Of a DNA stretch of 64,000 nucleotides, positions 29,206-57,694 are shown piece after piece. The notes below the pieces were generated by a model. That model was not told the origin of the DNA. It was given only the letters and a program-made list of their open reading frames with translations, and ran no database searches. How positions within the stretch are numbered: position 1 is the first letter of the stretch; each line of letters begins with the position of its first letter. The position numbers were made by a program, and so were the translations under genes. The DNA is from an uncultured Alphaproteobacteria bacterium (GTDB lineage Bacteria; Pseudomonadota; Alphaproteobacteria; Caulobacterales; Aquidulcibacteraceae): positions 4,285-68,284 of the forward strand of contig CADEEA010000007.1 of the NCBI GenBank assembly GCA_902826245.1. Direction: 5' to 3'.

Positions 29206-29370
29206 GCCATCCTCAAATTGTAGGGCCTGAGCCGCCGGCCTAACGATGCAGACCCCGGTTGAAAAGCCATCGAACGGCCCTGCGCTAACCCAGTTTCCTC
29301 CCAAAGGGAAACCAGTCTAGTAAACCGCGTTACGCCTCTCGGTCCCGCCGGCGAGCGTCAAGGGAGCGCA

Positions 29371-30513: not shown

Positions 30514-31613
30514 GCTTTCTTGGGTCGCGTCTTGGTGTTTACATCATTGGGCGGATTCTCGGCGGCGTTACGATCGCGTTGGCGGGGGTGCTCGCCTCAA
30601 TCCTGTTGATCGATCTCGTCGAACAGATGCGCACCGTTGGAACGCGCGCCGACCTAACTTTGCTGGAAGCGGCGCGGCTGACCTTACTCAAGGCGCCGAT
30701 GCTGGTGGAGCAGACGCTGCCGTTTGTCGTGCTAGCCGGGACGATGATGGCTGTGATCGGGCTAAACCGTTCCTCCGAGCTTGTGGCCATGCGCGCGGCA
30801 GGCGTTTCGGCCTGGCGTTTTCTTGCTCCAGCGGCGTTGACGGGCGCCGTACTTGGGGCGCTGGCGGTAGTCGCGCTCAACCCATTGGGCGCACATCTCT
30901 ATGCGCAATTCGAGGCCGGGAAGGCGGATGCAATTTCAGGTCCGCGGGGCCAGAACGCAGGCGCCAACGGCATCTGGATTCGCGAGGGCAATCGCGATGA
31001 ACAGATTGTCATCCAAGCCGCCGGCGTCGATGCCTCCGGCGCCACCCTGCAACAGGCGACCTTCATGTTCTTCGAGCAGCGCCAGGGCGCACTCCGTTTC
31101 ACGCACCGCCTTCGCGCCAGGGTGGCCCAGCTCCTGCCCGGCCATTGGCAACTCACGGATGTGGTGGAGGCCGCCCCTGGTTCGCCACCGACAGCGCAGC
31201 CTTACCTGGCGATAGAATCGTCGCTGGATTCATCAGAACTCATCAATCGTTTCGTTAACCCAGCGACACTCTCTTTTTGGGCGCTGCCGGCTTTTGTGCA
31301 CGAAGCCAGGGCGGCCGGGTTCGCACCAACGCGTTACGAACTAAAACTCCAGACCCTGTTGGCCTATCCCCTGCTTTTGGCGGCTATGGCGAGCCTTGGC
31401 GCGGCCTTTTCGCTGCAATTGCAGCGCCTTGGCAACTTGGCCAGGTGGGGGGCGACCGGGGTGGGAATTGGGCTATTTCTGTTTTTCTACAGCCAATTGG
31501 CGGGCGCTTTCGCGATTACTCAGACAGTGCCCACCGCGGTGGCGGCCTGGAGCGCCCCCTTTGCAGGCATGTTCATTGCGCTCGCCATGATCGCCTTTAT
31601 GGAGGATGGCTGA
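30510..31613 (+). CDS. lptG: LPS export ABC permease LptG
   Basis: SELVAMRAAGVSAWRF motif; second permease. Confidence 0.9.
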   Translation: MSFLGSRLGVYIIGRILGGVTIALAGVLASILLIDLVEQMRTVGTRADLTLLEAARLTLLKAPMLVEQTLPFVVLAGTMMAVIGLNRSSELVAMRAAGVSAWRFLAPAALTGAVLGALAVVALNPLGAHLYAQFEAGKADAISGPRGQNAGANGIWIREGNRDEQIVIQAAGVDASGATLQQATFMFFEQRQGALRFTHRLRARVAQLLPGHWQLTDVVEAAPGSPPTAQPYLAIESSLDSSELINRFVNPATLSFWALPAFVHEARAAGFAPTRYELKLQTLLAYPLLLAAMASLGAAFSLQLQRLGNLARWGATGVGIGLFLFFYSQLAGAFAITQTVPTAVAAWSAPFAGMFIALAMIAFMEDG

Positions 31614-31723
31614 GCAGCGCCCGGTTCGCCCAGCGGCGGCGAGCGCTGGACGGCCCCGGTCCGAGGGGATTAGGTATTCAGGGGAGTCGCATTAGGGATG
31701 TGCGAATGAGCCGCGTGGGGGAA

Positions 31724-33934
31724 ATGGCCAACAGGCCGGCTGAGCGGACGCCGTTCGGCTGGGCCGCGGTCGCGGCGGCGCTTGCCGTTTGCGCCAGCCC
31801 CAACGCTATTGCACAAACCCCCGCGAGCGCATCCACAGCAGACCGCACCCCTGTTCTGCTCGAGGCCGACCAGATCATCGACGATCAGGCCGCCCGCACG
31901 GTGACCGCCGAAGGCGATGTACAAGTTCGCTACGATGGGAGAACCCTTCGGTCCGACAGCCTGGTCTATGATCTCAACACCGGCGCTATCCGCGCCATCG
32001 GCAATGTCCAGGTGGTGCTGCCCGACGGTTCGACAACCTACGCCGAAGAAATCGAAGCCGACGAAGCGCTCAATGTTGGCGCAGCGCGCGAGTTGCGCGC
32101 GCGGCTGGGCGAGACCGGCACATTGGCGGCGCGCGCCGCGCTCCGCCACGGCGAAGGCGAGAACGAACTTCGCAATGTCATCTACACTTCCTGCCCAGTT
32201 TGCGAGACGGGCGAGCGCCCTCCGACCTGGGCGCTGCGTGCGCGGCGCGCCATCCAAGATCACGACACCCGGACTGTCTCCTATCAAAACGCCGTCGTCG
32301 AAGTGGCTGGCGTGCCGGTCTTGTACTTCCCATATTTCGCCCACCCCGATCCGACCGTTGAACGCGCCTCGGGCCTGCTGCCCCCAGGCATCGGCCGCAA
32401 CCGTCCGCTCGGAACATTCTATGAGCAGCCCTATTATTGGGCCATCTCCCCGTCCCAGGACCTGACAACGTCGCTGCGTGTGCACGGCAACGTCAACCCA
32501 ATGGTGTCGCTGGATTATCGCAAGCGATTTTGGTCAGGCGAGTTGTCTGCCCAGACCACCTTCACCCAGGAGCGCTTGTTCAACAATGACGGCGAACTTC
32601 TAGGCGAAGAGCGATTCCGGTTCAGCGCCTTCGCACAAGGCCAGTTCAAAATCAGCGATTACTGGGATTGGGGCTTCGGCGTCGAGCACATCTACGATGA
32701 CGATTACCTGCGCCGCTACGGCGTCCGCGGGGCGGGCGAGCGCCACGGGCCATACATTGGGCAATACACGCGGCTGATTTCGCAATTGTTCGCGATCGGC
32801 CAGAACGCCGATTCCTACACCTCGGTTTCGTTTGTCGATTTCCAAGGTTTACGCGAAACCGATAGCTCCGACCTGCTGCCGGTTATTTTGCCGTTCGCTG
32901 AGACCGAGCGCGTGCTGCCGCTACTGGGCGGCCAGATGCGTTTGCAAGCGAACGCCGCCGTCCTTTCGCGCAGCGACAATCCCGCTACCCTTCCATTTGA
33001 GGGCGACGACGCGCGTTTGTCGCTGTCAGCGACTTGGCGTCGCGACACGGTGTTTGGACCGGGTATGGTGCTGTCTCCGTTCGCCCAGGCGCGAGGCGAC
33101 CTCTACGGGGTGGAAACCAGCCAGAGCGATGTCGAGAGTTTCACGCGCGGGTTGGGGCTTGCGGGCGTCGAGGTCAGCTGGCCGTTCATGCGCCCGGGCG
33201 AAAGGTTCGACCTGATCGTAGAACCGGTGGCGATGGCCGCCTATGCGAGCAACGCCACGCCCGATCCGCGCATCGTCAACGAAGATAGCCTCGCCTTCGA
33301 ACTAGACGATTCAAACCTGTTCCGCCCCAATGGCGCTCCCAATTACGATCTCTGGGAGCCAGGCTCGCGCGTCAGCCTGGGCGTTCGCGCCACCGCCCGC
33401 GCCCATAGCGGAGAAAGCGCGACTCTGTTGTTTGGTAGACGTTGGCGCGAGCAGCAGGCGCCAGGTTTCACCCAGCAGAACAATATGGACGGGCGGGCGA
33501 GCGATTGGGTCGGCGCGTTCCAAGCCGACCTTGGGCCTAAATTGGGGGCCGAAGCCCGCATCCGCCTGGATGACGAGACCCTCGAACTCAACCGCATCGA
33601 TCTCGGCGTGCGCGCCTCGGCGGGACGTTTTTCGGCTCAAGCGCGATATTTTAGCGTCGCAGACACTCTGTCGCCAGGCGACCCTGGCGAAGAAATCACC
33701 GCCCAGGCCGGAATCAATCTGGCGGGAGGGTGGCGAATGCAGCTCGGACTGACACGCGACCTCGATTCAGACATAAATCTGCGCCAGGACATCCGCGCCA
33801 TCTACGAGGATGATTGCACGTTTCTAGAGATCGCCTACACCCGCTCGGAGACTCAGCGCGGCACCATCGGTCCCGACGAGGGCCTGCAGATCAAGATCGG
33901 TCTGCGTTCGCTTGGGGTGTTCGGCGGAAGCTGA
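31724..33934 (+). CDS. lptD: LPS assembly protein LptD
   Basis: OstA-like N-terminus, YTSCPVC, beta-barrel and YEDDCT motif. Start uncertain (31706 or 31724). Confidence 0.92.
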   Translation: MANRPAERTPFGWAAVAAALAVCASPNAIAQTPASASTADRTPVLLEADQIIDDQAARTVTAEGDVQVRYDGRTLRSDSLVYDLNTGAIRAIGNVQVVLPDGSTTYAEEIEADEALNVGAARELRARLGETGTLAARAALRHGEGENELRNVIYTSCPVCETGERPPTWALRARRAIQDHDTRTVSYQNAVVEVAGVPVLYFPYFAHPDPTVERASGLLPPGIGRNRPLGTFYEQPYYWAISPSQDLTTSLRVHGNVNPMVSLDYRKRFWSGELSAQTTFTQERLFNNDGELLGEERFRFSAFAQGQFKISDYWDWGFGVEHIYDDDYLRRYGVRGAGERHGPYIGQYTRLISQLFAIGQNADSYTSVSFVDFQGLRETDSSDLLPVILPFAETERVLPLLGGQMRLQANAAVLSRSDNPATLPFEGDDARLSLSATWRRDTVFGPGMVLSPFAQARGDLYGVETSQSDVESFTRGLGLAGVEVSWPFMRPGERFDLIVEPVAMAAYASNATPDPRIVNEDSLAFELDDSNLFRPNGAPNYDLWEPGSRVSLGVRATARAHSGESATLLFGRRWREQQAPGFTQQNNMDGRASDWVGAFQADLGPKLGAEARIRLDDETLELNRIDLGVRASAGRFSAQARYFSVADTLSPGDPGEEITAQAGINLAGGWRMQLGLTRDLDSDINLRQDIRAIYEDDCTFLEIAYTRSETQRGTIGPDEGLQIKIGLRSLGVFGGS

Positions 33935-33951
33935 GGTCGGAGCCAAGACTT

Positions 33952-35187
33952 ATGAGACAAATGAAACAAGTCGCCGCGGCGGCATTGTTCGCAGGGATTG
34001 TCGGCTTGTCCGCGCCAGCTTCGGCGCAATTGGCGGAGGGTGTGGCGGCGATCGTCAACGACACCGTTATTTCGACATTCGACGTGCGCCAGCGAGCGAA
34101 CTTGCTGCTGGTGTCGGCAGGCATCCAGTCGACACCGGAGATGGAGCAACGCGCCCGCGCGCAGGCACTGCGCGATCTGGTGGACGAACACCTACAGCTG
34201 GCGGAGGCCAAACACTTCGAGATTGAAGTCTCTGACGAACAGGTCGAACGACGCATCGCCGACATCGCCCGCCAAAACCAGACGGATCTGGCGGGGCTTG
34301 CCCAGCAGCTCGCAAGCCAGGGCATTTCGATTTCAACGTTGCGCACGCAACTCCGCGCCGACATTGCCTGGCAAAGGCTGATGTCGGGAATGTATGGCAG
34401 CCGAGTCCGCGTTTCAGAGGTGGAGGTCCGCGAGACGCAAGAGCGCATCGCCGCCAGCGCCACGCAGACCCAGTACCAATTGTCGGAAATCTTCCTCCCC
34501 GCCGAGACTGAAGCCGAGTTCGCCGAGATGGAACAAGGCGCCATGCGGCTGCTGCAGGAGATGCAGCGCGGCGCTCCCTTTCCCCTGGTTGCGCGCCAGT
34601 TCTCGCGGTCCGCGTCGGCGGCCGCAGGCGGCGACATCGGCTGGATTTCGGCGCCGGAATTGGCGCCGGAACTACAGCCCGTGGCCGACCAATTGCAGCA
34701 AGGCCAGGTTTCATTGCCAATCCGCACGCCGAATGGCGTCTACCTCCTCGCGATGCGCGAACGGCGCGCTGGCGCGCCCGCGGGCGCGACCTCGCTGGTG
34801 CGTTTGCGCCAGATCACCGCGCCTGCTGGACGTGAAAACGCGCTAGCACGGGTGCAGCGACGGATTGCCGGCTGCGACGACCTTGAGGATGCAGTGTCGA
34901 GTGTGCCCGACGCGAGCGTCATCGACCTCGGACAAGCAGCGGAAGCTGACCTCTCGCCGGTTGTCGTTGAGCGTATTGCCGGCGTCGCTGTGGGCTCGGC
35001 GTCGCGTGTTCAGGTCGACGGCGACCTCGCCTCCAGCTTTGTCGTCTGCTCGCGCGAAGCCGGCGGTTCGGCGGTGCCTGATCGCCAGGAGATCGAAGGT
35101 CGCCTGCGTGAGCAGGAACTGACCATGCTGTCGGAGCGCTATCTGCGCAATCTGCGGCGCGAGGCCACGATCATCACGCGTCAATGA
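33952..35187 (+). CDS. surA: Peptidylprolyl isomerase/chaperone SurA
   Basis: AAIVNDTVIS N-terminus and parvulin domain (FSRSASAAAGGDIGW); lptD-surA-pdxA-rsmA synteny. Confidence 0.9.
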   Translation: MRQMKQVAAAALFAGIVGLSAPASAQLAEGVAAIVNDTVISTFDVRQRANLLLVSAGIQSTPEMEQRARAQALRDLVDEHLQLAEAKHFEIEVSDEQVERRIADIARQNQTDLAGLAQQLASQGISISTLRTQLRADIAWQRLMSGMYGSRVRVSEVEVRETQERIAASATQTQYQLSEIFLPAETEAEFAEMEQGAMRLLQEMQRGAPFPLVARQFSRSASAAAGGDIGWISAPELAPELQPVADQLQQGQVSLPIRTPNGVYLLAMRERRAGAPAGATSLVRLRQITAPAGRENALARVQRRIAGCDDLEDAVSSVPDASVIDLGQAAEADLSPVVVERIAGVAVGSASRVQVDGDLASSFVVCSREAGGSAVPDRQEIEGRLREQELTMLSERYLRNLRREATIITRQ

Positions 35188-35188
35188 G

Positions 35189-36196
35189 ATGAAGCCGCTC
35201 GCGGTTTCGATGGGCGATCCCAGCGGGATCGGACTCGAACTGGCGGCGCGCTTGTGGGCGGAACGCAAGGCGCCGCGGTTTTTTCTGGTAGGCGACCCTG
35301 GCGCATTCGAGCGCGCGAGCGCGCGGCTTGGCCTGCCGCGGCCCCAAATCCATGTCGCTTCCGACCCTACCTCGCTTTGCGAAGCCAAGCCTGACGCGCT
35401 GCCGTTTCTGGACGTGCCGCTCGCCCACGAAGAGACGCCTGGCGTTCCCAATCCTGCCAACGCGCCTGCCATTGTTTGCGCCATCGAGCGTGGGGTCGCC
35501 GCCGTGCGCTTAGGCGCCGCGTCGGCACTGGTGACCCTTCCCATCGCGAAGAGTGTGCTGCAGGAGGCCGGTTTTGTCTTTCCAGGCCACACCGAATATG
35601 TCGCCCACCTCACCGCGGGCGACACCTATGACGGCGCACGCGGGCCAGTGATGATGCTGGCAGGACCCCAGCTGAGAGTGGCCCTCGCAACCATCCACAC
35701 ACCGCTGGCCGAGGTTTCACCTCAAATCACGAGCGCCCGCATCACCCAGATCGGGCGCGTTGTGGGCGAAGCACTGCGGCGTGATTTCGGCGTCGCAAAG
35801 CCGCGCATCGCCCTATGCGGACTGAACCCGCACGCGGGAGAAAACGGCCGCATCGGCCACGAGGAACGGGAAATAATCAACCCAGCAGCCGCGATTCTGC
35901 GCAACGAAGGTTGGGACATCACCGACGCGCGCTCCGCCGACTCGCTCTTCCATGAGGGCGCGCGCGCTGGCTACGACGCAGCAATTGCGCTATACCATGA
36001 CCAGGGCCTGATCCCGATCAAGACGCTGCACTTCTGGGACGCGGTCAACGTCACGCTCGGACTGCCCATCGTGCGCACTTCGCCAGATCACGGCGTCGGC
36101 TTCGACATCGCCGGCAAGGGCGTGGCGCGCGCCGATAGTCTCCGTGCGGCGCTCAATTTGGCTACATCGATGGCGAAGCGCCGCGCCTCAGCATGA
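35189..36196 (+). CDS. pdxA: 4-hydroxythreonine-4-phosphate dehydrogenase
   Basis: GDPSGIG, GLNPHAGE, YHDQGLIP and RTSPDHG motifs. Confidence 0.97.
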   Translation: MKPLAVSMGDPSGIGLELAARLWAERKAPRFFLVGDPGAFERASARLGLPRPQIHVASDPTSLCEAKPDALPFLDVPLAHEETPGVPNPANAPAIVCAIERGVAAVRLGAASALVTLPIAKSVLQEAGFVFPGHTEYVAHLTAGDTYDGARGPVMMLAGPQLRVALATIHTPLAEVSPQITSARITQIGRVVGEALRRDFGVAKPRIALCGLNPHAGENGRIGHEEREIINPAAAILRNEGWDITDARSADSLFHEGARAGYDAAIALYHDQGLIPIKTLHFWDAVNVTLGLPIVRTSPDHGVGFDIAGKGVARADSLRAALNLATSMAKRRASA

Positions 36197-37056
36197 ATTC
36201 CGACGATCTGCCGTCACTCCGCAGTGCGCTCGAAGCGCACGGCCTGTGGGCCAACAAGGCGCTCGGCCAACATTTCCTGCTCGACATGAACATCACGCGC
36301 CGCATCGCACGCGCCGCCGGCAACATCGCTGGCAGACCAGTGATCGAGGTCGGCCCCGGTCCTGGCGGGTTGACGCGCGCACTACTCGAAGCCGGCGCCG
36401 CCCCCTTGATCGCTATCGAGAAGGACGCGCGCTTTCTGCCTCTGCTAGAGCCGCTGGCGGAGTGGAGCGGGGGACGCCTGCACATTGTGCACGGCGACGC
36501 GTTGAATTACGCGCCGCCCTACGCCGCGAGCGCCGCCGACGAAACGCCGGTCCAGATCGTCTCGAACCTCCCGTACAACATCGGCACGCCGCTGCTGGTG
36601 CAATGGCTCAAGGCTGGACCTTGGCGTGGTGATATGACGCTCATGTTCCAGAAGGAGGTAGCGCAGCGCATCGTCGCCAAGCCGGGAACGAAGGCGTACG
36701 GACGCCTCGCGGTGCTAGCCCAGGCGCGCTGCGAGTGTCGCCTCGAGTTCACGATCCCCGCGCGCGCATTCACGCCGCCGCCGAAAATCGCGTCGGCAGT
36801 CGTGCGCCTTACCAATCTCGCCGGGCCCTACCCCCACCTCGATGCACTCGAACGCGTTACTGCGGCAGCCTTCGGGCAGCGCCGCAAGATGCTCCGCAGC
36901 GCGCTGCGCGCACTGACGCCGGGGGCCGAGGATTTGCTCCGCACAGCGGGCTTATCGGCTACCGCGCGCGCGGAAAAGATCGATGGAGCAGGGTTTTGCG
37001 CGCTCGCTGACGCGTGGCGCGCGATTTGCCCAACAGAATCGACGACCAAGCCATAA
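36193..37056 (+). CDS. rsmA: 16S rRNA dimethyladenosine transferase
   Basis: LGQHFL, IEVGPGPGGLT, SNLPYNI and MFQKEVA motifs. Confidence 0.97.
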   Translation: MNSDDLPSLRSALEAHGLWANKALGQHFLLDMNITRRIARAAGNIAGRPVIEVGPGPGGLTRALLEAGAAPLIAIEKDARFLPLLEPLAEWSGGRLHIVHGDALNYAPPYAASAADETPVQIVSNLPYNIGTPLLVQWLKAGPWRGDMTLMFQKEVAQRIVAKPGTKAYGRLAVLAQARCECRLEFTIPARAFTPPPKIASAVVRLTNLAGPYPHLDALERVTAAAFGQRRKMLRSALRALTPGAEDLLRTAGLSATARAEKIDGAGFCALADAWRAICPTESTTKP

Positions 37057-37220: not shown

Positions 37221-38030
37221 TCACGGGGCGCGGTTCGCGGCGTCTTCTATTTGCACGCGGTAGCCTGAGCGCACGTGCGGGAAATAATCCCAAATCGCCA
37301 GATGCTGAGTGCAGCGATTGTCCCAGAACGCCACCGAATGCGGCTCCCAGCGGAAGCGCATGGCGAAATACGGATCTTCGCAATGCTGGTAGAGGAACTC
37401 CAGCAAGTGCCGGCTCTCTCTCGGAGAGACTTCATTGATGTGGCTGGTAAAGCCTCGATTGACAAAAATCACCTTGCGGCCAGTCACCGGGTGAACGCGG
37501 ATAACCGGATGCACAGATTTGGGATACTTGCCTTCCGGATCGAAACGGCCAAACGCAAGGATGCCGTCATGGGTGGCCGTCAAACCCTCGAGATAAGTCT
37601 TCATCCGGTCAGAGAGCGCATCATAGGCCGCGTACATGCTGGCGAAAATCGTGTCGCCGCCTTGTGGCGGCAGCGTGTGCAGATAGAGGATGCTGCCCAT
37701 TGGCGGCACTGCGGCGCACGACATATCCGTGTGCCATTCCTCGCCGGAGACATGCTTTGAGTTTTCGTCGGCGTGCAATTTGCGCACGTCGGGATAGTCC
37801 GGCATGCCTTTCAAAGCATGGCGCTGCAGCTTGCCGAAATATTGCCCCACCCGAGACAATGAACCGGGGTCGAGCCTCTGATCCCGGAAGAAGATCACTT
37901 GGTGATCGGCCAACGCTTGGTGCAGATCGTCGACAGCTGCATTGCTCAAAGGCTGGGTCAGATCGACACCGGAAATGACCGCCCCGATCCGCGGTGTGAT
38001 GGGGGAGGCCTTGATTGTGGCGTAGCTCAT
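37221..38030 (-). CDS. TauD/TfdA-family Fe(II)/2-oxoglutarate dioxygenase
   Basis: WHTD facial-triad motif, GGDTIFA and WDNRCTQH. Confidence 0.92.
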   Translation of the reverse strand: MSYATIKASPITPRIGAVISGVDLTQPLSNAAVDDLHQALADHQVIFFRDQRLDPGSLSRVGQYFGKLQRHALKGMPDYPDVRKLHADENSKHVSGEEWHTDMSCAAVPPMGSILYLHTLPPQGGDTIFASMYAAYDALSDRMKTYLEGLTATHDGILAFGRFDPEGKYPKSVHPVIRVHPVTGRKVIFVNRGFTSHINEVSPRESRHLLEFLYQHCEDPYFAMRFRWEPHSVAFWDNRCTQHLAIWDYFPHVRSGYRVQIEDAANRAP

Positions 38031-48260: not shown

Positions 48261-48381
48261 GCTTATCCGCCCCGCTCTGGACTCTCTTGGCTACCACAGC
48301 GCATTCTTCCGGTTTAAGCGAGCGCAGCACCAAGCGCGCCGGAGCCAAGGCGACTTGACCACTTCCCTAAGATAGTTTTGA

Positions 48382-48392
48382 TTGTCAGACAA
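48382..48392. promoter_or_regulatory. Operator copy 5 (perfect TTGTCAGACAA)
   Basis: Between the divergent MFS and Rieske genes; flanks extend the symmetry (TTGAT...ATCAA). Confidence 0.72.
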
Positions 48393-49513: not shown

Positions 49514-50740
49514 ATGACCAACGCAGCCTTACCCGCGACGAAGGAGGCCGCGAATTGGCCGCTGGTGCTTTGCGCTATGTTGGGCGTGGCTGTCTGCTGT
49601 ACGCCAATCGCGATCTTGAGCCTCAGCGTGTTTTTTATCCCCCTGGGGGACGCGCTGGGATGGGGTCGCGGCGAGATCGCCGCAGCGCTTTCCATTCTGG
49701 CGCTTTCCATGGGGGTGGCGACCCCATTCGCGGGACGACTCATTGACAGGCTTGGCGTCAAGCCTGTCCTGGTTACATCCTTGTTGCTCTATGCGGGGTT
49801 CATGGCGGCTACGCCATATTTGATATCTCGCTTCGGGCTCTTGGGGTTCTACGGCGCCTATGTCGTCATCGGCATTGTCGGCGCCGGATCGAACACGGTC
49901 GCCTACACGCATGTACTCTCCGGCTGGTTCGACAAGGCGCGCGGCCTCGCGCTGGGCTTTGCGGTGAGCGGCATCGCCGTCGGCGCGGTGGTGGCGCCGG
50001 CGCTCGCGGCCTACTTGATTGAGGCCTATTCCTGGCAAGTCGGGTTTTACGGGCTGGCGGCGCTGCCGGTCCTTGTCGGCGCGCCAATTGCGTTGTTCGC
50101 CATCAGCGAGGCGCCGACGATCACCGCCGCGCATGAGAAGAAGGCTGAGGCGCCAGGCATGGATGCGGCCACCGCTTACAAAACCCGCGAATTCTTAGTG
50201 TTGTTCACGGTGTTCCTGATCGTGGCCACCTGCTTGCACGGCGTGCAAATTCACTTGCCCTCCTTGCTGGAGGATCGCGGCCTCACCACGCAAGCTGCGG
50301 TTGGCGCCTTCAGCCTACTGTTTGCGGTGACGGCGGTGACGCGCATAGCGGCGGGATTCTTGTTCGACCGCATGTTCGCGCCCATCATTGGCGGCGTCTT
50401 ATTTGTTCTTGGCGGCATCGGCATCGCCATGATGATGCCGACCTGGGCAGCGCTCTATTATTTGATCGCGGCGGCGCTGATCGGCATCGCAACTGGGGCT
50501 GAAACCGACCTTCTGGCCTATCTCACCGGGCGCTATTTTGGCTTGAAGGCGTTTGGCCAAGTTTATGGCGGCCTGTTCCTCGCCTTCATGATTGGCAGCG
50601 CCGTCGGCCCTTATGCGCTGGGCTTCGGCTTCGACGCCACCGGCAATTACGACCTCACGCTCACAGCGTGCGCAGTGGGCATGCTTATCGCGTGTGGTCT
50701 GCTTGTGACGCTGCCGCGTTATCCTAAGTTGGAGGCCTAG
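49514..50740 (+). CDS. MFS transporter (OFA/monocarboxylate-like), paralog of 46992-48260
   Basis: GRLIDRLGVK, WFDKARGLALG and AETDLLAYLTGRYFG. Confidence 0.9.
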   Translation: MTNAALPATKEAANWPLVLCAMLGVAVCCTPIAILSLSVFFIPLGDALGWGRGEIAAALSILALSMGVATPFAGRLIDRLGVKPVLVTSLLLYAGFMAATPYLISRFGLLGFYGAYVVIGIVGAGSNTVAYTHVLSGWFDKARGLALGFAVSGIAVGAVVAPALAAYLIEAYSWQVGFYGLAALPVLVGAPIALFAISEAPTITAAHEKKAEAPGMDAATAYKTREFLVLFTVFLIVATCLHGVQIHLPSLLEDRGLTTQAAVGAFSLLFAVTAVTRIAAGFLFDRMFAPIIGGVLFVLGGIGIAMMMPTWAALYYLIAAALIGIATGAETDLLAYLTGRYFGLKAFGQVYGGLFLAFMIGSAVGPYALGFGFDATGNYDLTLTACAVGMLIACGLLVTLPRYPKLEA

Positions 50741-51600
50741 CCGCCGCGGAACCAATCGGTGATTTCACTGCCGGTGGCGAACCAAACGTCCTTGTGCGCG
50801 GCGATATGAGCCAGCGCTTTATCGAGGTGTAAGGCTCGGAATGGGTGCCCGATGAGAAACGGGTGCAGGGCGATCGACATCAAGCGAGGCGTCCTCTCAC
50901 CTTCCGCGTATAATTGGTCAAACTGATCCACAATAATGTCATGGAAAGCCTTGCCCGTCCGCCCTTGGTGCAAGAACACCGGGATGTCGCCGACTTCAAG
51001 CGTGTAGGGCAAGGACAAGATCGAGCCCGCGCGCGTGCTCATCTCGTAAGGCAATTCGTCATTGGCCCAGTCCATTACATAGTCGACGCCTGCCTCTTTC
51101 AGGAGGTCCAGCGTGTTGTTGGTTTCGGTAAGCGCCGGCCCCAGCCAACCGCGCGGGCGCTTGCCACTCGCCTGCGCAATTCGATCAAGAACGCCAGCAA
51201 TAATTGGTTGTTCGGCCTCCGGCGGCATACCGGTGAACAGCATGGAATTGGTCGGCCCATGCGCAACCCATTCCCAGCCGAGCTTGTTGCCCTCTTCAAC
51301 TATGCGCGGGTACTCGTCGCAAACCTCGGAGTTAAGCGCGGCCGTGGCCTTCAGCCCGTGCTTGGCCAAAATCTCCATCACCCGCCACACACCCACCCGC
51401 GCGCCATAATCGCGCCAGGCATGGTTCAGGACGTCTGGGCTTAAGCCCGCCGTCATCGGCGTCATCGACATCGCTGGCTTGCCCCACTGGAAATGCTCGA
51501 TGTTAGGCGTGATCCACACGCCGACACGGGCGTCATTCGGCAATTTGCGAGTCGGCCGATCGACAATCGGCGAATAGTTGAATCGATTATGCCCGGTCAT
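50737..51600 (-). CDS. Polysaccharide deacetylase-family amidohydrolase (PuuE-like)
   Basis: WRDYGARVG, PRGWLGPAL, DWANDELPY and IALHPFLIG motifs. Start could also be 51615. Confidence 0.88.
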   Translation of the reverse strand: MTGHNRFNYSPIVDRPTRKLPNDARVGVWITPNIEHFQWGKPAMSMTPMTAGLSPDVLNHAWRDYGARVGVWRVMEILAKHGLKATAALNSEVCDEYPRIVEEGNKLGWEWVAHGPTNSMLFTGMPPEAEQPIIAGVLDRIAQASGKRPRGWLGPALTETNNTLDLLKEAGVDYVMDWANDELPYEMSTRAGSILSLPYTLEVGDIPVFLHQGRTGKAFHDIIVDQFDQLYAEGERTPRLMSIALHPFLIGHPFRALHLDKALAHIAAHKDVWFATGSEITDWFRGG

Positions 51601-51618
51601 GTGTGCGCTCTCCAAACC

Positions 51619-51855
51619 TTAAGCACTGGATTTTTTGATCGGCGGGAACACCTGCCCGCCTTCCCCATCAAACAGATTGATCACCCGATAGGGGCAGCTC
51701 CGCGCCGCGCGCAGCAACACATCATCCGAGGAGGCGCCGCTGTCGCCGAGCACAACCTTGCCATCCTCGCCAAGCGAGAACGTCTGCGGCGCCAGTTGCA
51801 CACACTTGCCGTGCGCCTGACACTTTTCGCGGTTGACCCGTACTTCGAACCCCAT
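51619..51855 (-). CDS. Ferredoxin, CxxHxxC...CP ([3Fe-4S]-type)
   Basis: CQAHGKC...SCPYRVI. Confidence 0.88.
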   Translation of the reverse strand: MGFEVRVNREKCQAHGKCVQLAPQTFSLGEDGKVVLGDSGASSDDVLLRAARSCPYRVINLFDGEGGQVFPPIKKSSA

Positions 51856-51864
51856 TGTGGCCTT

Positions 51865-52332
51865 TCAGATGATGAATTGCAGCAGCGGCAACTCGCGCTC
51901 GCTGTTGATCAAGAATACTGTCTTGCGGGCGATGCGAAAATCCTCGCCGGCGCGGCGCAACGCGTGCACGCTGCGGCCGATCCATAGCTGCTGCTCTGCG
52001 GTCCGCGCCACGCCAAGGATAAAGTTCGAGCCCACTTCGCACTTGTCCTCGCGATGGCTCAGAATCTCGATGTTTGACACCACGCGTCGCATGGCCCCGC
52101 GCGCGCCCTCGACAGCAAGCACCGAGCCGGATTTCAGGCGCGCGACCCTCTGTTCGATGCGCGGGTAGTCGTCATTGACGATAGATACTTTTCCTGGCTC
52201 CCCGCCGGCGCCGATCGGAACCTGGTAGACTCCGTCCTTGTCCCAAAGCGCGAGCCAGCCGGAATAATCCATCTCGTCCATCAACCGCGCCTCGCGGAAG
52301 AGGAACGCCTCGACTGCGGCCTGCTCGCTCAC
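51865..52332 (-). CDS. Aromatic ring-hydroxylating dioxygenase beta subunit
   Basis: FLFREARLMD...WLALW, RRVVSNIEI and FRIARKTVFLIN. Confidence 0.92.
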   Translation of the reverse strand: MSEQAAVEAFLFREARLMDEMDYSGWLALWDKDGVYQVPIGAGGEPGKVSIVNDDYPRIEQRVARLKSGSVLAVEGARGAMRRVVSNIEILSHREDKCEVGSNFILGVARTAEQQLWIGRSVHALRRAGEDFRIARKTVFLINSERELPLLQFII

Positions 52333-53576
52333 TCCCCGTCCTCCATGAGCGAAACATAATGCCGCCAGAAGCCACGCAAGTGCGTCTCATCGCGTGTCAT
52401 GCCGGAACGGCCTCCATCCGGCATTGAACGCTCGCGGTGCATGCCGCGGCCAATATAGAGCCGATCATCACCGCGCGCCTGCATGCCGACTTGGTTGCGC
52501 TCCATGATCTCGACATCGTCTGGCGACACAAAGCCAGCCGAGCCGAACATGAATTCGTGATCCGAGAGGCGCGCTTCGTTAATCTCGGCGGGCGCGCCCT
52601 TGAGCATGACCGGGAAATAATAGGAATGCGTTCGATCCACGCTCACCGGCTGCACAACGCGCAAATGTGTGATCACGTACATCAGGTTCGGGAATACATA
52701 GAGCAGCGGCGCCATTGTGCTCAACATGGCCGCCGCCTTGGCCTCGCCATGGCGCGCTTTCAGCTTGGCGATGTATTCGAGACGCGCCGCACTAGGTTGG
52801 CGTTTGGGCGGGTCCATGGGCGCGCCGCGATAATCTTCCACCATGTGCCCACCCGGCAGAGAACGGATCACATCAGGCACTTCGTCCGTCGCAAGCGCGG
52901 TAACGTCAAAACCGGTGCGCTTGGCGTAAAGGTCGAAAGCGACCCCGTGTATGAAGGGGCCATGATAGTCGCCCTCCATCGAGTTCTCCGGCATGTATTT
53001 CCAATTGCCGCGATAGACGACCTTCTGCTCGCCGGCGTCGACCGCAATTTCGCCCTCAGGCGAGAGATCCATGAACAGGTCGAGAAATTCTGTGACGCCG
53101 CCCAAATGCTCGGCCAAGCTCTGCCCTTCTGCAGCGACGCTGGCGAACACTAAGCCGCGATAGCTGTCCTGGCGCGGCAACGGTGTGAGGCCGAAGCGCT
53201 CCTTCTCGAGATCGTAATCATAGCCATCGTCAAAAGTCGGCGCGACAAGCTCACCGGTATTGGCATAGGTCCAGCCGTGGTAGGGACAGACAATGCTCTT
53301 CGCCACACCGCGCTCGGCGAAACACACCAAATTGGCGCGATGACGACAGCGATTGTAGAACACGCGTACCTTGTCATCGTTGCCGCGCACCATAATCACT
53401 GGCTGCAAGCCGATTTGTCTCCGCACGAAGTCGCCCGGCTTTGGCACTTCGCTTTCGTGGCCAACATATACCCACACCCTGTACCAGATGCGCTCCAGCT
53501 CGCGCTGAAACAGCCCCGGGTCGCGGTAGACGCTGCCGCGGACAACGGCGTCCTGGGCTAATGGAGCATCAGTCAT
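52329..53576 (-). CDS. Aromatic ring-hydroxylating dioxygenase alpha subunit
   Basis: NRCRHRA...CPYHGW, EGDYHGPFIH and DDVE motifs. Confidence 0.93.
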   Translation of the reverse strand: MTDAPLAQDAVVRGSVYRDPGLFQRELERIWYRVWVYVGHESEVPKPGDFVRRQIGLQPVIMVRGNDDKVRVFYNRCRHRANLVCFAERGVAKSIVCPYHGWTYANTGELVAPTFDDGYDYDLEKERFGLTPLPRQDSYRGLVFASVAAEGQSLAEHLGGVTEFLDLFMDLSPEGEIAVDAGEQKVVYRGNWKYMPENSMEGDYHGPFIHGVAFDLYAKRTGFDVTALATDEVPDVIRSLPGGHMVEDYRGAPMDPPKRQPSAARLEYIAKLKARHGEAKAAAMLSTMAPLLYVFPNLMYVITHLRVVQPVSVDRTHSYYFPVMLKGAPAEINEARLSDHEFMFGSAGFVSPDDVEIMERNQVGMQARGDDRLYIGRGMHRERSMPDGGRSGMTRDETHLRGFWRHYVSLMEDGE

Positions 53577-53579
53577 CGG

Positions 53580-54668
53580 TCAGTACGGCTCATAATCGCG
53601 AAGGTTGGGTATGACGTGTTCGCCGAAGAGGCGGATTGAACGCATCAACGCCTCCTCGGGCATGTCGCCGAAATTGAACTCGCCAAAAAACGTATTGAAA
53701 CTTCCCTCCTTGGCCCAAGCCCGCAACTTGTTCGCGACGGTGTCAGGCGCGCCGATCAACACGAGGTCCTTTTCGATCAGGTAATCAGGGTCGAGCATAT
53801 TGAGGATGATCTCGCCCGCGCCTGGATCGTTGCGGCTTTCGAAATATGCGGCGGTTTCCTTTTGCTTCTTGCGGATTTCCTCCCAGTCGTCGCCGGTCGA
53901 AAAGAACCCTTTATAAGCGTTGCCGGCGTCGGCCTTTGCGCGCGAGAGCGCGATCTCATCGGTCTCATCAACGTAGACTACCGTTGAGTAGGCGATGTTC
54001 GGAACACCAGCGTGGCCGTGCTGCTTCCAACCAGAAAGATAAGGCCCGTAGCGAGCATGAGCTTCTTTGCGCGGAAACAGCAGAAAATAGCCCGAGTGCA
54101 TGCCAAGCTCGGCACACAATTCTAGCGTCGGTGGATCACGGGTTTCCATCCACACGGGTGGACATGGTTTCTGGACTGGCCAAACGGATAGCTCTAGGTC
54201 CTTGACCTTGATCAGCGCGCCCTCCCAACTAGCCGGCGAACCTTGTTGGAACGCCGACTTCATGAAACGGGCGAACTCCTGAGTAATTTCGCGGCGTTCG
54301 GCAAAATTCGCGCCGAAATGTTTGAAATAGCTGTCCTGGATGCCTGGTACCAAGCCTACTTCTATGCGCCCGTTGGTGAGCTGATCGGTGAGCGCTATCT
54401 CCTCCAGCAAGCGGATCGGGTTATGCAAGGGCACAACATGGCCCATGGCCCCCACACGAATCCGCTTCGTCCGCGCCGCTGCCGCTACCGCGAACAGATT
54501 CGGCGACGACATCCAACTCTCGCCCGGCGTGAAATGGTGCTCGACGCTGAACGCATAGTCGAAGCCAACCTCATCGCAGAGCGCGATCTCACGCCACAAT
54601 TGCTCGTAGCGTTGGTGGGGCGTCATGCCGGCCTTGCCCCAGACATGGGCAAAATGGGCAAACCTCAT
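53580..54668 (-). CDS. Luciferase-like (LLM) flavin-dependent monooxygenase
   Basis: VEHHF, RIRVGAM, PIRLLEEIALTDQLTNGRIEVG; GGAGG SD before ATG 54668. Confidence 0.92.
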   Translation of the reverse strand: MRFAHFAHVWGKAGMTPHQRYEQLWREIALCDEVGFDYAFSVEHHFTPGESWMSSPNLFAVAAAARTKRIRVGAMGHVVPLHNPIRLLEEIALTDQLTNGRIEVGLVPGIQDSYFKHFGANFAERREITQEFARFMKSAFQQGSPASWEGALIKVKDLELSVWPVQKPCPPVWMETRDPPTLELCAELGMHSGYFLLFPRKEAHARYGPYLSGWKQHGHAGVPNIAYSTVVYVDETDEIALSRAKADAGNAYKGFFSTGDDWEEIRKKQKETAAYFESRNDPGAGEIILNMLDPDYLIEKDLVLIGAPDTVANKLRAWAKEGSFNTFFGEFNFGDMPEEALMRSIRLFGEHVIPNLRDYEPY

Positions 54669-54729
54669 CGCCTCCTCCAGACATGGCTGATGCGCCAAAC
54701 ACTAATCGCTCGAACACGAAACACAAGGA

Positions 54730-54740
54730 TTGTCTGACAT
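54730..54740. promoter_or_regulatory. Operator copy 6 (TTGTCTGACAT)
   Basis: In the 84-bp gap upstream of the LLM-alpha-beta-ferredoxin-deacetylase genes. Confidence 0.65.
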
Positions 54741-54752
54741 TTGCGGGTGAGA

Positions 54753-55604
54753 TCAAGCCCGCAAGAACGCTGCCGCCATTTCGTTGAAACGCTCGGCATG
54801 TTCGATGTGCGAGCAATGGCCCGAGCGCGCAAAAACCTCGAACCTGCCGTCGCTTAGCATGAGCCGCCCATTGTCTATCGCGCCATCTGGCTCAGCCAGT
54901 AATTTGTCGTTCTGGCCAGTGATAAGCAGCAGCGGCGTTACACAAGCGCTGTAATCAGGTTGCGGTGGCGCGCTACCCGGCCGCCCTGGCATCCGGAACC
55001 GCGCGGCTTCCACTGCTTCCCAATGGCCCGGCATCAAGGCGCTCGCCTGACGACGCGCGACATAGGCCTCATCATTGGGCCAGGAATCGCTGTGGAAGCT
55101 GGCGGCCACGATGGCGCGCATGGCCTCAAGCGTTCCGTCATAAGCATTGTGGAAGGCGCGCCCTGGCCCGGGCGTGCCGATCGAGGATGGGCTTACCAGC
55201 ACCATTTTGCGGATTGGCAAGGCGCGCCGATAATCGACGCCGCGCTCGGAAGTCCACTGCAACAGGAACGAGGCCGCACACGAATTGCCTATGAAATCGG
55301 CCTCCGCGACGGCCAGAGTCTCAAGGAAACGCTGCAATTGCCGCAATCGCGGCGCCAGCGGGCTGCGACCAAAATCGTATATCTTGTCGCTGCCGCCATA
55401 GCCCAGCCAATCGGGGGCGAGGATGTGGAAATGCTGGCTCAGCGCCCGGATATTGTATTCCCAGCTAATCTCGGCGCAGGCGCCAAACTCGCAAGAGTGC
55501 AGCAGAACGAGCTTTGGGCTCTGGCTGTCGCCGGCCTCGAGGTAGTGCGTGGTGACTCCATCAATGACGATGGCCTTGCTTGCCGCACCAGACGGGGTGT
55601 TCAT
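54753..55604 (-). CDS. Alpha/beta hydrolase (MhpC/BphD-like fold)
   Basis: APDWLGYG, nucleophile elbow GNSCA and SGHCSHIE catalytic His. Confidence 0.85.
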   Translation of the reverse strand: MNTPSGAASKAIVIDGVTTHYLEAGDSQSPKLVLLHSCEFGACAEISWEYNIRALSQHFHILAPDWLGYGGSDKIYDFGRSPLAPRLRQLQRFLETLAVAEADFIGNSCAASFLLQWTSERGVDYRRALPIRKMVLVSPSSIGTPGPGRAFHNAYDGTLEAMRAIVAASFHSDSWPNDEAYVARRQASALMPGHWEAVEAARFRMPGRPGSAPPQPDYSACVTPLLLITGQNDKLLAEPDGAIDNGRLMLSDGRFEVFARSGHCSHIEHAERFNEMAAAFLRA

Positions 55605-55616
55605 AGGCAGGTTCCC

Positions 55617-56981
55617 TCAAGGCGCCGCATTTTGGCGATCCATCAGCCAGCGCCCGATTGCCAGCATCTCGGCGTCGCGATGCTCAAATCCCATAAATTG
55701 CACGCCAAGCGGTAGGCCATCCACCGCCAACAAGGGCAGATTCATGCTCGGCGCGCCGATGGCGGAGGATGCATCATTGTACCAGGGCGTACCCAATTGC
55801 GGCTGGCCGACTTGCCCCGGGCCAACATGCGCCAGCGTGATAAAACCATCAACGGCGCCAGCCAACCCGCGATGCTGCGCGCGCAGATCTTCACGGCGCT
55901 CCATGGCTTGCTTATACCGCTCAGACGAAATCGCAATCGCGCGATCGATATGGCCATGCATGATGGCGCTGAATTTATCAGGGTGGGCGTCGCGAAGACC
56001 GCGCAGCGGCCAGACCATTTCCCGGAATAGATCAAAGAACCAGTCGAGCACAGCTGCGGTCGCGGCCTCATAAGCCGCGAATTCCGGCACAGCGTTTGGT
56101 TCGACAATCTCCACGCCCGCTGCGGAAAGTTCACTCACCCAGTCTTCGAAACAGGCTTGCGAAGCGGCGTCCGTCTTCTCCCAGCCGATCGTGTATTGCC
56201 GCGCCAGCCGCAGCGGCTTTCTCGCGGCCGGCAGCGGGCCTTCGCCGGCAAATGGCTCGCAGCCAGGGTCGCCGCCAACGCTGGCGGCTATGTGGCAGGC
56301 CGCGTCCCAGATATCTTCCAGCGTCGCGCCAATCAGCACGAGGTGATTGAGGCTTGGCGTTGGATCGACGCCGCCATGACGGTTGAGCGCCCCGAACGTC
56401 GGCTTCAATGCGGGCACGCCACAAATCGAAGCGGGACGAATGCCAGAGCCACGCACTTGGCTCCCCGTCGCCAGCGGCAGCATGCCGGCAGCCACCGCAG
56501 CCGCCGAACCCGAAGACGATCCCCCCGGCGTTCGCGTCAAATCCCACGGATTCCACGTCGGCGCCGGCAGCGCCATCGTCCATTCCGTAGTCGTGGTTTT
56601 GCCGACCACAACGCCGCCGCCCTGACGTAATGCGTCAACATGGGCTGCATCGATCTGCGCGGGCGGCGCATCATCGAAGACTGGGCTGTTCAACCGCGTC
56701 GGCCAGCCCGCAACATCGAAGCAATCCTTGACCGCGAACGGCATGCCATCGATGCGCGACAGCGGGCGTTGCTCGCGCCAGCGCTGGCCTGCCTCATCGG
56801 CGCCGCGCCGCGCGGCCTCCAAATCAGACACCACAAACGCCTTGACCGCTGGCTCCAGCGCCTCAAGCCGCTCCAAACATCCTTCTAGAAACTGCCGCGG
56901 ACTATTGTTACCCGATACAAACGTTTCGCGCGCGGCGGCGAAACTCGCGAACCGGGCCGTACGAGGGTCATAAACGCTCAT
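55617..56981 (-). CDS. Amidase-signature family enzyme
   Basis: AVKD Lys, PGGSSSGSAAAVA and GSQVRGS; ATGA overlap with the GntR gene. Confidence 0.9.
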   Translation of the reverse strand: MSVYDPRTARFASFAAARETFVSGNNSPRQFLEGCLERLEALEPAVKAFVVSDLEAARRGADEAGQRWREQRPLSRIDGMPFAVKDCFDVAGWPTRLNSPVFDDAPPAQIDAAHVDALRQGGGVVVGKTTTTEWTMALPAPTWNPWDLTRTPGGSSSGSAAAVAAGMLPLATGSQVRGSGIRPASICGVPALKPTFGALNRHGGVDPTPSLNHLVLIGATLEDIWDAACHIAASVGGDPGCEPFAGEGPLPAARKPLRLARQYTIGWEKTDAASQACFEDWVSELSAAGVEIVEPNAVPEFAAYEAATAAVLDWFFDLFREMVWPLRGLRDAHPDKFSAIMHGHIDRAIAISSERYKQAMERREDLRAQHRGLAGAVDGFITLAHVGPGQVGQPQLGTPWYNDASSAIGAPSMNLPLLAVDGLPLGVQFMGFEHRDAEMLAIGRWLMDRQNAAP

Positions 56982-57694
56982 ACGCGAGCACCCGCATGAA
57001 AACAGAGCGCCGGATGCAGCATTTGCGTTACCGCAATCGCGCGGCCCGCAGCGCAATCGGTCCACCACAGCGACAAGAGCGGCGCCCCTGGCGGCGCTTT
57101 CAGCAGCATCGCAAAACGCGGTTCCGCAGATATCGCCTCAACCCAACCATCCCTCATCGCCACGGGGGTCGCCGTCCAATCTGAAAGCGAGGAGGCAAAG
57201 CGCCGCCCGCTGGCAAGGGCATCAAGCGCCCCTGTAAATTGCGGATGCAGGTAGCGCTTCACCCCCCAACGCGGCGCATCGTTGGACACCTTGATGAAGA
57301 ATGGAATCGGGGCGTGGCTGCGCACTCCAAGCAATTCCGAAACCTGAGGCGGAGCTGGGGCGCAACCGGTGCGGACCAGACGCTGCGCTCGATCGGCGAG
57401 CGCAGAAGCCTCCCCCCAGGAACGCACTTTGCGAGCCGCCGGACGGCCCGCCCGTGCATCGCCGCGCACAAATGTTCCGCGCCCAACCTGGCGATCAATG
57501 AGGCCGTCCCTCTCCAAGGACTCCAGCGCCTGACGCACAGTGGCGCGACTTACTCCGTAGCGCAGGCGTAGTGTTTCCTCAGTCGGCACTTGATCCCCTG
57601 CCCTCAGCTCGCCATCGGCGATCTGCTCGCGCAAGATGGCCTCCATCTGTCGATAGAGACGCAAATCGCCCTGGCGGAGGGCCGCGCGCGGCAT
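56978..57694 (-). CDS. GntR-family regulator (HutC/UTRA-like C-terminus)
   Basis: PTEETLRLRYGVSRATVRQAL...GRGTFV wHTH; divergent C-terminal domain. Confidence 0.88.
   Translation of the reverse strand: MPRAALRQGDLRLYRQMEAILREQIADGELRAGDQVPTEETLRLRYGVSRATVRQALESLERDGLIDRQVGRGTFVRGDARAGRPAARKVRSWGEASALADRAQRLVRTGCAPAPPQVSELLGVRSHAPIPFFIKVSNDAPRWGVKRYLHPQFTGALDALASGRRFASSLSDWTATPVAMRDGWVEAISAEPRFAMLLKAPPGAPLLSLWWTDCAAGRAIAVTQMLHPALCFHAGARV

Follow-up and report, generated by a model that had tools for sequence, protein, structure and literature searches.

What do five tightly packed genes for a luciferase-like monooxygenase (LLM), a two-subunit Rieske oxygenase, a small ferredoxin and a PuuE-like hydrolase accomplish together in an uncultured alphaproteobacterium? 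The genes lie on the minus strand of a stretch of 64,000 nucleotides of contig CADEEA010000007.1 (assembly GCA_902826245.1), which we refer to as the window. Our analysis shows that the operon is real, conserved and horizontally mobile, the module having moved between Pseudomonadota and Eremiobacterota. It is a new variant among catabolic systems, built from three uncharacterised subfamilies. As to its function we favour, at a probability of about 0.5, an accessory role in a regulon of several operons that share the operator TTGTCWGACAA; the regulon would serve the breakdown of an N-containing aromatic or heteroaromatic acid. Three alternatives, among them the one put forward by an earlier sequence-only reading, are weighed against it below.

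The five-gene unit and its operator

The list of open reading frames (ORFs) and the family scans place five genes in the following order behind one operator copy:

54730..54740, no strand assigned: operator half-palindrome ATGTCAGACAA, matching TTGTCWGACAA with one mismatch, 62 nt upstream of the LLM start
53580..54668, minus strand: LLM, a LuxA-like luciferase-like monooxygenase of 362 aa (Pfam PF00296 at 1e-49)
52329..53576, minus strand: Rieske oxygenase alpha subunit of 415 aa (PF00355 and PF00848)
51865..52332, minus strand: Rieske oxygenase beta subunit of 155 aa (PF00866 at 5e-23)
51619..51855, minus strand: small [3Fe-4S]-type ferredoxin of 78 aa (Pfam Fer4_15 and Fer4_13)
50737..51600, minus strand: PuuE/imidase-like hydrolase ("deacetylase") of 287 aa counted from the ATG (PF01522)

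The LLM and alpha genes are separated by 3 nt, alpha and beta overlap by 4 nt, and a gap of 9 nt lies between beta and the ferredoxin. The gap between ferredoxin and hydrolase is 18 nt if the latter starts at 51600 and 3 nt if it starts at 51615; the ATG at 51600 is probably the start. For the LLM the start is the ATG at 54668, behind GGAGGAGG, in favour of which a TTG at 54698 was rejected. A 106-aa ORF (51722-52042) was rejected as the ferredoxin because it matches no family and overlaps the gene for beta. The operator copy ATGTCAGACAA occupies 54740-54730; an alpha/beta-hydrolase gene ends just before it, and the LLM begins beyond it. All five genes form a single transcription unit. The sequence-only reading had described this order, the tight spacing and a single unit behind an operator. 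The order and spacing hold, with gaps of 3-18 nt or 4-nt overlaps and with the families as it had named them, and the single unit is supported by the tight spacing together with the operator upstream of the LLM.

Enzyme families of the unit

The hydrolase has the most informative relatives. On the PuuE model TIGR03212 it scores 132 bits against a cut-off of 424.6. Its matches in the PDB are 3s6o, 1z7a and 3cl6, at about 1e-26 and 28-34% identity (3s6o: E 7e-27, about 30%). The first of these is 91% identical to the cyclic imidase BpIH (PMC11424739). Both PuuE and BpIH carry Glu-His-Trp in place of the Asp-His-His metal triad of CE4 enzymes and are metal independent (PMC11424739). We aligned the window protein and six members of its family with six true PuuEs from the sampled genomes. 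Glu35, His114 and His246 are invariant in the hydrolase family and align with the Glu, His and His of PuuE (His246 corresponds to His259 of PuuE), the context of Glu35 being N-I-E in the family against N-Y-E in PuuE. The position of the PuuE Trp is taken by an invariant Asn118/Ser119, and the EGGEN loop is six residues shorter. At the positions of the CE4 Asp-His-His triad the hydrolase shows Glu35, His114 and Asn118 (Glu-His-Asn/Ser).

Read from its sequence, the protein has no signal peptide and no signal-like hydrophobic N-terminal stretch and would be cytoplasmic. It is the sole PuuE-like gene product of the genome (93.6% complete), in which no gene for 2-oxo-4-hydroxy-4-carboxy-5-ureidoimidazoline (OHCU) decarboxylase was found; a role in ureide metabolism is therefore unlikely. 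We rejected the hydrolase as a PuuE allantoinase (132 against 424.6 bits, Trp replaced, no OHCU decarboxylase found) and as a CE4 polysaccharide or peptidoglycan deacetylase (neither the Asp-His-His triad nor a signal-like N-terminus). On its residues it is to be classed as a third variant of the PuuE/CE4 fold. It looks like an enzyme that would act on a cyclic amide, imide or ureide rather than as a linear deformylase, given the residue pattern, an imidase as closest solved relative and a constant amidase-signature partner. Set against the cyclic imidases (EC 3.5.2.16), it shows about 30% identity to 3s6o, partly conserved residues and a conserved amidase partner.

Such a partnership has a precedent in the nicotinate pathway of Aspergillus nidulans, where a piperidinedione is opened by HxnM, an imidase related to PuuE, and the product is then deamidated by HxnN, an amidase-signature enzyme (PMC9304392); the window hydrolase is likewise partnered with an amidase-signature amidase. 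With PuuE, BpIH, CIH of P. putida YZ-26 and HxnM it shares a homologous fold, a catalytic Glu with two His, and the lack of a metal site. It differs from this group in the missing triad Trp, the six-residue deletion in EGGEN and the position of its gene behind a Rieske oxygenase and a ferredoxin.

The Rieske alpha subunit contains the motif C77-x-H79...C97-x2-H100 (CxH-X17-CxxH, residues 77-100) and a mononuclear iron site, YHGPFIH, of the form H-X4-H. Solved Rieske structures are matched at E-values of 1e-54 to 1e-42, HcaE being the best (7e-54), followed by the auxin oxygenase IadD (7yls, 9o71), BphA and naphthalene dioxygenase (NDO). No NCBIfam model scores above its cut-off, and all remain far under the equivalog cut-offs. 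More than 100 metagenomic proteins are at least 60% identical to alpha, none of them with a specific name; among 401 sampled genomes of the class, alpha was matched at E 1e-100 or better only in the window's own genome. The ferredoxin shows the pattern C12-x2-H-x2-C18 ... C54-P. Pairings of a Rieske oxygenase with a [3Fe-4S]-type ferredoxin are represented by CarAc of Nocardioides and PdmAB of Sphingobium. The only ferredoxin reductase with a Reductase_C domain (PF14759) is encoded on another contig (C18). With its motifs, the PF00866 beta subunit and the adjacent ferredoxin, the system has the make-up of a three-component alpha-beta Rieske oxygenase whose candidate reductase, on C18, is unlinked. 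It resembles HcaEF, IadDE, BphA and NDO in its alpha and beta subunits, Rieske centre and His-His iron site, and differs from them in having a ferredoxin of the [3Fe-4S] type instead of the Rieske or plant type, and no linked reductase.

The LLM is the only PF00296 gene product in the 3.2-Mb genome. It reaches the cut-off of no curated NCBIfam model, the best partial scores being those for LuxA (92 bits; cut-off 600), TIGR04027, the Atu2307 family and the MupA family. A profile of the LLM family aligns with Vibrio harveyi LuxA over the whole length (1-358 to 1-353) at 93 bits. In the PDB the same profile yields 109 bits for the RslO1-type chain 7bip, 44 for SsuD and 29 for RutA, and no chain of the LadA or NtaA type is matched at E 0.01 or better. 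The invariant E43-H44-H45-F46 aligns with the catalytic histidines of LuxA at identical numbering. Using blastp, the LLM is 22.7% identical to Escherichia coli RutA (37 bits), matches E. coli SsuD over 107 residues only (38 bits) and reaches 25 bits (E 0.008) against Geobacillus LadA. RutA, SsuD and LadA score 56-80 bits among themselves (RutA-SsuD 69, RutA-LadA 56); the LLM is more distant from each.

Several assignments of the LLM were rejected on these grounds. For RutA there is no model among the 21 NCBIfam matches at E 0.001 or better, besides the 37 bits in blastp. The SsuD model TIGR03565 gives 36 bits against a cut-off of 518, and the NtaA/DmoA/LadA-type model TIGR03860 gives 26 bits (cut-off 280) in the C-terminal part only, for a protein of 362 instead of about 440 aa. 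We take PyrA and TpdA to belong to these large LLMs of the NtaA/DmoA/LadA type, with about 440 aa and insertions. A luciferase alpha subunit was also rejected: the EHHF motif is present, but the genome holds no second LLM as LuxB partner and the score is 92 bits against 600. The LLM is best described, as far as its sequence goes, as LuxA-like and not a luciferase, with FMNH2 (reduced flavin mononucleotide, FMN) presumably as its cofactor. It has the full-length profile alignment and the EHHF motif with His44/His45 at the same positions in common with V. harveyi LuxA (PDB 1brl/1luc), and it differs from LuxA and RslO1 (7bip) by the missing LuxB partner, an identity of about 25-30% and the location of its gene within a catabolic operon. 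No PF01613 flavin reductase is encoded in the genome; two FMN_red proteins are encoded elsewhere in it.

The LLM family is compact and consists of about seven clusters at 50% identity, after which identity falls to 35% or less. No informative name occurs among its members or the nearest outside clusters. The ESM Atlas returned only generic LLM clusters, and a plasmid search with the LLM gave no match above 30% identity. Members at 53-60% identity form tandem duplicates or triplicates in four loci of alphaproteobacterial metagenome-assembled genomes (MAGs; L029, L035, L039, L070), in varied neighbourhoods without the Rieske module.

Recurrence in other genomes

We retrieved 80 genome loci with the LLM profile and 80 metagenome loci with the hydrolase profile. 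Where the LLM is at least 68% identical, the alpha-beta-ferredoxin-hydrolase module lies within 3 kb in six of the seven informative loci from other genomes; in the seventh it is found 28 kb away on the same island. None of the 72 loci with an LLM at 67% identity or below holds the module within 10 kb. The six close loci belong to a single MAG of the Rhizobiaceae and to five of the Eremiobacterota/Vulcanimicrobiota. Here the LLM gene is divergent from an (SsuA-like binding protein)-alpha-beta-ferredoxin-hydrolase unit, with an amidase gene convergent and a TauD-like gene nearby. A quick maximum-likelihood tree groups all eight linked LLMs in one clade of 12 sequences, with an SH-aLRT support of 99. 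The remaining four members comprise one on a 3-kb contig, one lying 190 bp from the end of its stretch and two second copies from Lustribacter MAGs; for the LLM at the stretch end, no module is present in the 10 kb upstream. The association of the LLM with the module is more than chance.

The closest relative is found in the alphaproteobacterial MAG G401, whose LLM is 79% identical and which holds the whole island in a rearranged gene order. Here the alpha-beta-ferredoxin-hydrolase block is the one 28 kb away, and the LLM is the last gene of another operon, behind genes for a short-chain dehydrogenase/reductase (SDR), a zinc-dependent alcohol dehydrogenase, a VanA-like Rieske protein, a major facilitator superfamily (MFS) transporter and an alpha-only Rieske protein. 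Between Rieske alpha and amidase G401 has an MFS gene and a gene for a 362-aa protein without Pfam family (L103:1935-3023, minus strand). In the window the matching slot is occupied by the LLM and alpha/beta-hydrolase genes.

From the side of the hydrolase, alpha, beta, ferredoxin and hydrolase recur in seven metagenome loci (L104, L107, L110, L114, L115, L117, L118). The ferredoxin sits directly upstream of the hydrolase in related loci; L114 shows beta, no ferredoxin match and a gap of 2.4 kb. Both L113 and L116 show LigB, ferredoxin and hydrolase contiguously, in this order and without alpha and beta; in five further loci (L127, L128, L134, L146, L149) hydrolase paralogues of 45-55% identity have LigB-like neighbours. 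These recurrent LigB neighbours suggest that the hydrolase may act on a ring-cleavage product. The amidase (59-67% identity) adjoins the hydrolase in convergent orientation in L005-L007, L111 and L113. No LLM lies within 10 kb of the hydrolase in four long metagenome loci (L112, L113, L115, L116). The stable core is thus the ferredoxin-hydrolase pair with its link to a LigB-type dioxygenase and an amidase, whereas alpha-beta and the LLM are accessory and separable.

Additional genes travel with the module. An SsuA-family binding protein accompanies it in the Eremiobacterota loci L005-L007 and in L002 (Rhizobiaceae), scoring under the family cut-off. L005-L007 also contain a TauB-like ATP-binding cassette (ABC) ATPase, a permease-sized ORF and a TauD-like dioxygenase, again under the family cut-offs, and the scan of L007 found an MmgE/PrpD-family protein whose score is under the family cut-off as well. 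Our search of the literature turned up no earlier description of an LLM combined with a Rieske oxygenase, an amidase and a deacetylase.

Regulon, pathway and alternatives

Allowing at most one mismatch, we count five TTGTCWGACAA sites in the window; the expected number is 0.46, and the shuffles give 0 of 100. All five sites front transcription units of a catabolic island that starts at 37.2 kb, directly after a housekeeping block, and extends beyond the window to at least 77 kb of the contig. Two further sites lie just outside the window (L187:3581-3591 and L187:5983-5993), and the exact motif is also present in related islands of other genomes and taxa. The regulators and neighbouring genes to which we refer below are:

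L187:3274-4464 (contig C7 at about 70.3-71.5 kb, beyond the window), plus strand: FCD-type GntR regulator, divergent from a nine-gene LigB/DUF2848 operon
56978..57694, minus strand: HutC-type GntR regulator, divergent from the gene of a thiamine diphosphate (ThDP) enzyme, with an 18-bp palindrome of its own
55617..56981, minus strand: amidase-signature amidase with intact GGSSSG signature; longest ORF 57068-55617
54753..55604, minus strand: alpha/beta hydrolase of the meta-cleavage-product (MCP) hydrolase type with a GNSCA elbow, upstream of the operator in the GntR-amidase unit
49514..50740, plus strand: MFS transporter of the lactate/oxalate-formate family, convergent on the hydrolase
37221..38030, minus strand: TauD-like 2-oxoglutarate dioxygenase (Pfam TauD at 8e-66), at the island edge behind an operator copy

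The promoter common to the FCD-type GntR gene and the nine-gene LigB/DUF2848 operon contains TTGTCAGACAT. We infer that the FCD-type protein is the likely binder of TTGTCWGACAA, as the operator stands in its divergent promoter whereas the promoter of the HutC-type gene holds a different palindrome. The HutC-type protein was considered for this role and is probably not the binder, its own intergenic region carrying that different 18-bp palindrome. The arrangement would put the LLM-to-hydrolase unit under a control separate from the gntR-amidase-hydrolase unit upstream of it. One exact operator copy (48382-48392) overlaps the listed TTG start of a VanA-like Rieske ORF (48378-48392); the true start of this ORF is therefore placed farther downstream.

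Within the island we find the VanA-like Rieske gene together with SDR and zinc-dependent alcohol dehydrogenase genes, two amidases, the ThDP enzyme, LigB, a cupin and DUF2848. Outside the window it adds an OCD/mu-crystallin protein, a dihydrodipicolinate synthase (DHDPS)-type aldolase, two aldehyde dehydrogenases and several SDRs. This content (amidases, MCP-type hydrolase, LigB-type dioxygenase, ThDP enzyme) supports the view that the enzymes are part of a nitrogen-releasing aromatic catabolic island.

The pathway that we favour would run in four steps. The alpha-beta Rieske oxygenase, whose components are all at hand, would dihydroxylate a ring of the substrate, as is usual for its family, with electrons passing from the unlinked ferredoxin reductase to the co-encoded [3Fe-4S]-type ferredoxin and on to the oxygenase. 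Judging from co-occurrence, the SDR and the LigB-type dioxygenase of a neighbouring operon may then re-aromatise and cleave the ring. Next, the PuuE-like enzyme would use Glu35, His114 and His246, without metal, to open a cyclic amide, a cyclic imide or possibly a lactone remaining in the intermediate. The amidase-signature amidase would then free ammonia from the half-amide, in the manner of imidase/half-amidase pairs; what is observed here is the residues and the partnership, and they point to a substrate of this kind. As for the fourth step, the LuxA-like LLM, using FMNH2 from an unlinked FMN reductase, may carry out a flavin-peroxide oxygenation at a carbonyl or a heteroatom-adjacent carbon. 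It would be a separable step of the regulon, most likely making or removing a group before the hydrolysis and less likely opening the ring itself. A bicyclic or tricyclic N-heteroaromatic acid is a plausible substrate.

Four points weigh against this proposal. Named or characterised relatives are lacking for all three subfamilies, and every reaction consequently rests on inference from the superfamily. The third triad position of the hydrolase is unlike that of both PuuE and CE4 enzymes, and its chemistry may differ too. The LLM step is the weakest part: in G401 the LLM belongs to another operon, and in L113, L115 and L116 none is present within 10 kb of the module. Also, the scheme leaves unexplained the TauD-like enzyme that accompanies the module and, in the other phyla, the SsuA-like binding protein with a TauBC-like ABC system.

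We consider it unlikely that the operon works as the sequence-only reading had proposed, with an LLM that opens an N-heterocycle in the way of RutA, PyrA or TpdA, a PuuE-like enzyme that deacylates the product and a Rieske oxygenase that dioxygenates the benzenoid ring of, for example, quinoline, quinolone, kynurenate or indole. RutA, PyrA (pyridine; Arthrobacter sp. 68b) and TpdA (tetramethylpyrazine; R. jostii TMP1) are LLMs that open N-heterocycles, after which amidohydrolases act. LuxA-type and RutA-type LLMs alike direct a nucleophilic flavin peroxide at a carbonyl, which makes lactam ring opening chemically conceivable here. CE4-fold enzymes include de-N-acylases, and the MCP-type hydrolase, SDR, LigB-type dioxygenase and amidases nearby are what the benzenoid half would require. 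Fold and cofactor logic, amide hydrolases in the operon and an alpha/beta hydrolase like RutD are also shared with the Rut pathway and its kind. However, the LLM falls outside the RutA, SsuD and NtaA/DmoA families and is more weakly related to RutA (37 bits) than RutA is to SsuD (69) or LadA (56). The analogy with ring-opening enzymes thus holds for the superfamily and fails for membership in RutA (29 bits by profile, 37 by blastp). Deacylases have a metal triad that the hydrolase lacks; its resemblance is to imidases and PuuE. Several loci hold the module without an LLM, and in none of the other genomes examined did we find a homologue of the alpha/beta hydrolase (at least 35% identity) adjoining either LLM or module. 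Literature searches for kynurenate degradation genes found nothing.

The postulated deformylation likewise received no specific support, as residues, imidase relative and amidase partner favour hydrolysis of a cyclic amide or imide. The sequence-only reading had itself named two outcomes that would speak against it, namely an LLM grouping with SsuD or LadA and a deacetylase for allantoin or polysaccharide. We observed neither: the family profile gives 44 bits for SsuD and no match of the LadA type, and the hydrolase is not a true PuuE, nor is it a polysaccharide deacetylase of the secreted kind. Its bicyclic substrate survives in part, since a fused carbocycle and N-heterocycle is compatible with the gene content while the mechanistic core is unsupported.

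There is little chance that the island serves a proteobacterial catabolism of flavin, lumichrome or quinoxaline type, analogous to the lum operon of Nocardioides simplex together with RcaE. In such a pathway a side chain would be removed or modified by the LLM or by the TauD-like enzyme, and a methyl group oxidised by the VanA-like Rieske protein and dehydrogenases. Dismantling the pyrimidinedione would fall to the PuuE-like enzyme with the amidases, and the ThDP enzyme would decarboxylate the heterocyclic acid. Alpha-beta and ferredoxin would open the diazine ring, and LigB, cupin, an FAH-like (fumarylacetoacetate hydrolase) enzyme and aldolase would complete the pathway. The lumichrome pathway reconstituted in 2025 comprises an FMN-dependent monooxygenase, methyl oxidation with dehydrogenases, three ring hydrolases and a ThDP heterocycle decarboxylase, as well as a Rieske alpha-beta oxygenase with ferredoxin that acts on a quinoxalinedione, an extradiol dioxygenase, a cupin, an FAH and an aldolase (PMC12746152). 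Compared by enzyme category alone, the island matches this list one for one, including the unusual ThDP enzyme, and riboflavin/lumichrome catabolism (RcaE and lumA-Y, PMC12746152) is its closest analogue by category. The likeness is by category only, though: other families fill several categories and several steps would require non-homologous enzymes. Cytochrome P450 and xanthine oxidase are both missing, the ThDP protein is single-chain instead of split, and the hydrolases are different. We found neither a ribokinase nor a riboflavin kinase in the island, and the categories are individually common in aromatic catabolism. RcaE, a protein of about 55 kDa, contrasts with the LuxA-like LLM of 40 kDa. 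It is quite improbable that the island amounts to an entire Gram-negative route for a vitamin or signal compound of the fused N-heteroaromatic type, be it riboflavin, lumichrome, quinoxaline or some related tricyclic. If it did, the monooxygenase would be colocalised with the ring-degrading genes, which is stated as not seen in any strain (PMC12746152), and the new PuuE-like family would replace the LumH/I/M-type enzymes on the pyrimidinedione.

Least probable of all is the use of an organosulfonate, possibly aromatic, desulfonated by the TauD-like, LLM, SsuA-like and TauBC-like proteins with the Rieske system as an arylsulfonate oxygenase: the TauD-like proteins reach 256-262 bits on the taurine dioxygenase model (cut-off 313), and SsuA-family binding proteins and a TauB-like ATPase stand within the Eremiobacterota and Rhizobiaceae clusters, but the LLM, though of the SsuD superfamily, scores 36 bits on the SsuD model (cut-off 518), all tau/ssu-like components are under their family cut-offs, the 37-77 kb stretch showed no genes for handling sulfite, and the island is rich in carbon and nitrogen catabolism (three amide hydrolases, LigB, aldolase, aldehyde dehydrogenases) with substrate-responsive regulators of the GntR type.

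Whichever compound the favoured N-containing aromatic acid module may act on, the three subfamilies are large and well conserved, without a characterised member and mostly known from metagenomes of soil and peat. Cultivable strains of Sphingorhabdus and Bradyrhizobium sp. RDM4 carry close homologues. For the hydrolase family alone the relatives number more than 4,000, often labelled "allantoinase" or "chitin deacetylase" in databases. If the substrate were identified, thousands of annotations would be put right, the metal-independent PuuE/imidase fold would gain a new specificity, and the LuxA-like LLM clade a function. The common operator and the adjacent FCD-type regulator offer a direct experimental path to the inducing compound and the substrate.

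Some observations on the neighbouring genes may be added. The housekeeping block behind which the island is directly inserted (27254-37056) carries holC, pepA, lptF, lptG, lptD, surA, pdxA and ksgA. At the island edge, the TauD-like protein scores 256 bits on NF007104 (cut-off 313), and its gene is linked to the module in L001, L002, L005-7 and L115. An MFS transporter with 45% identity to that of the window is likewise convergent on the hydrolase in L117. The amidase most likely starts at Met30 (position 56981), abutting the GntR stop, since orthologues begin at the equivalent position; the 90-nt overlap of the GntR and amidase ORFs (56978-57068) is probably an artefact of longest-ORF calling. 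The nucleophile elbow of the alpha/beta hydrolase reads GNSCA against the usual G-x-S-x-G and the GNSxGG of MCP hydrolases, and the sequence SGHCSHIEH near its C-terminus marks the site of the likely catalytic His.

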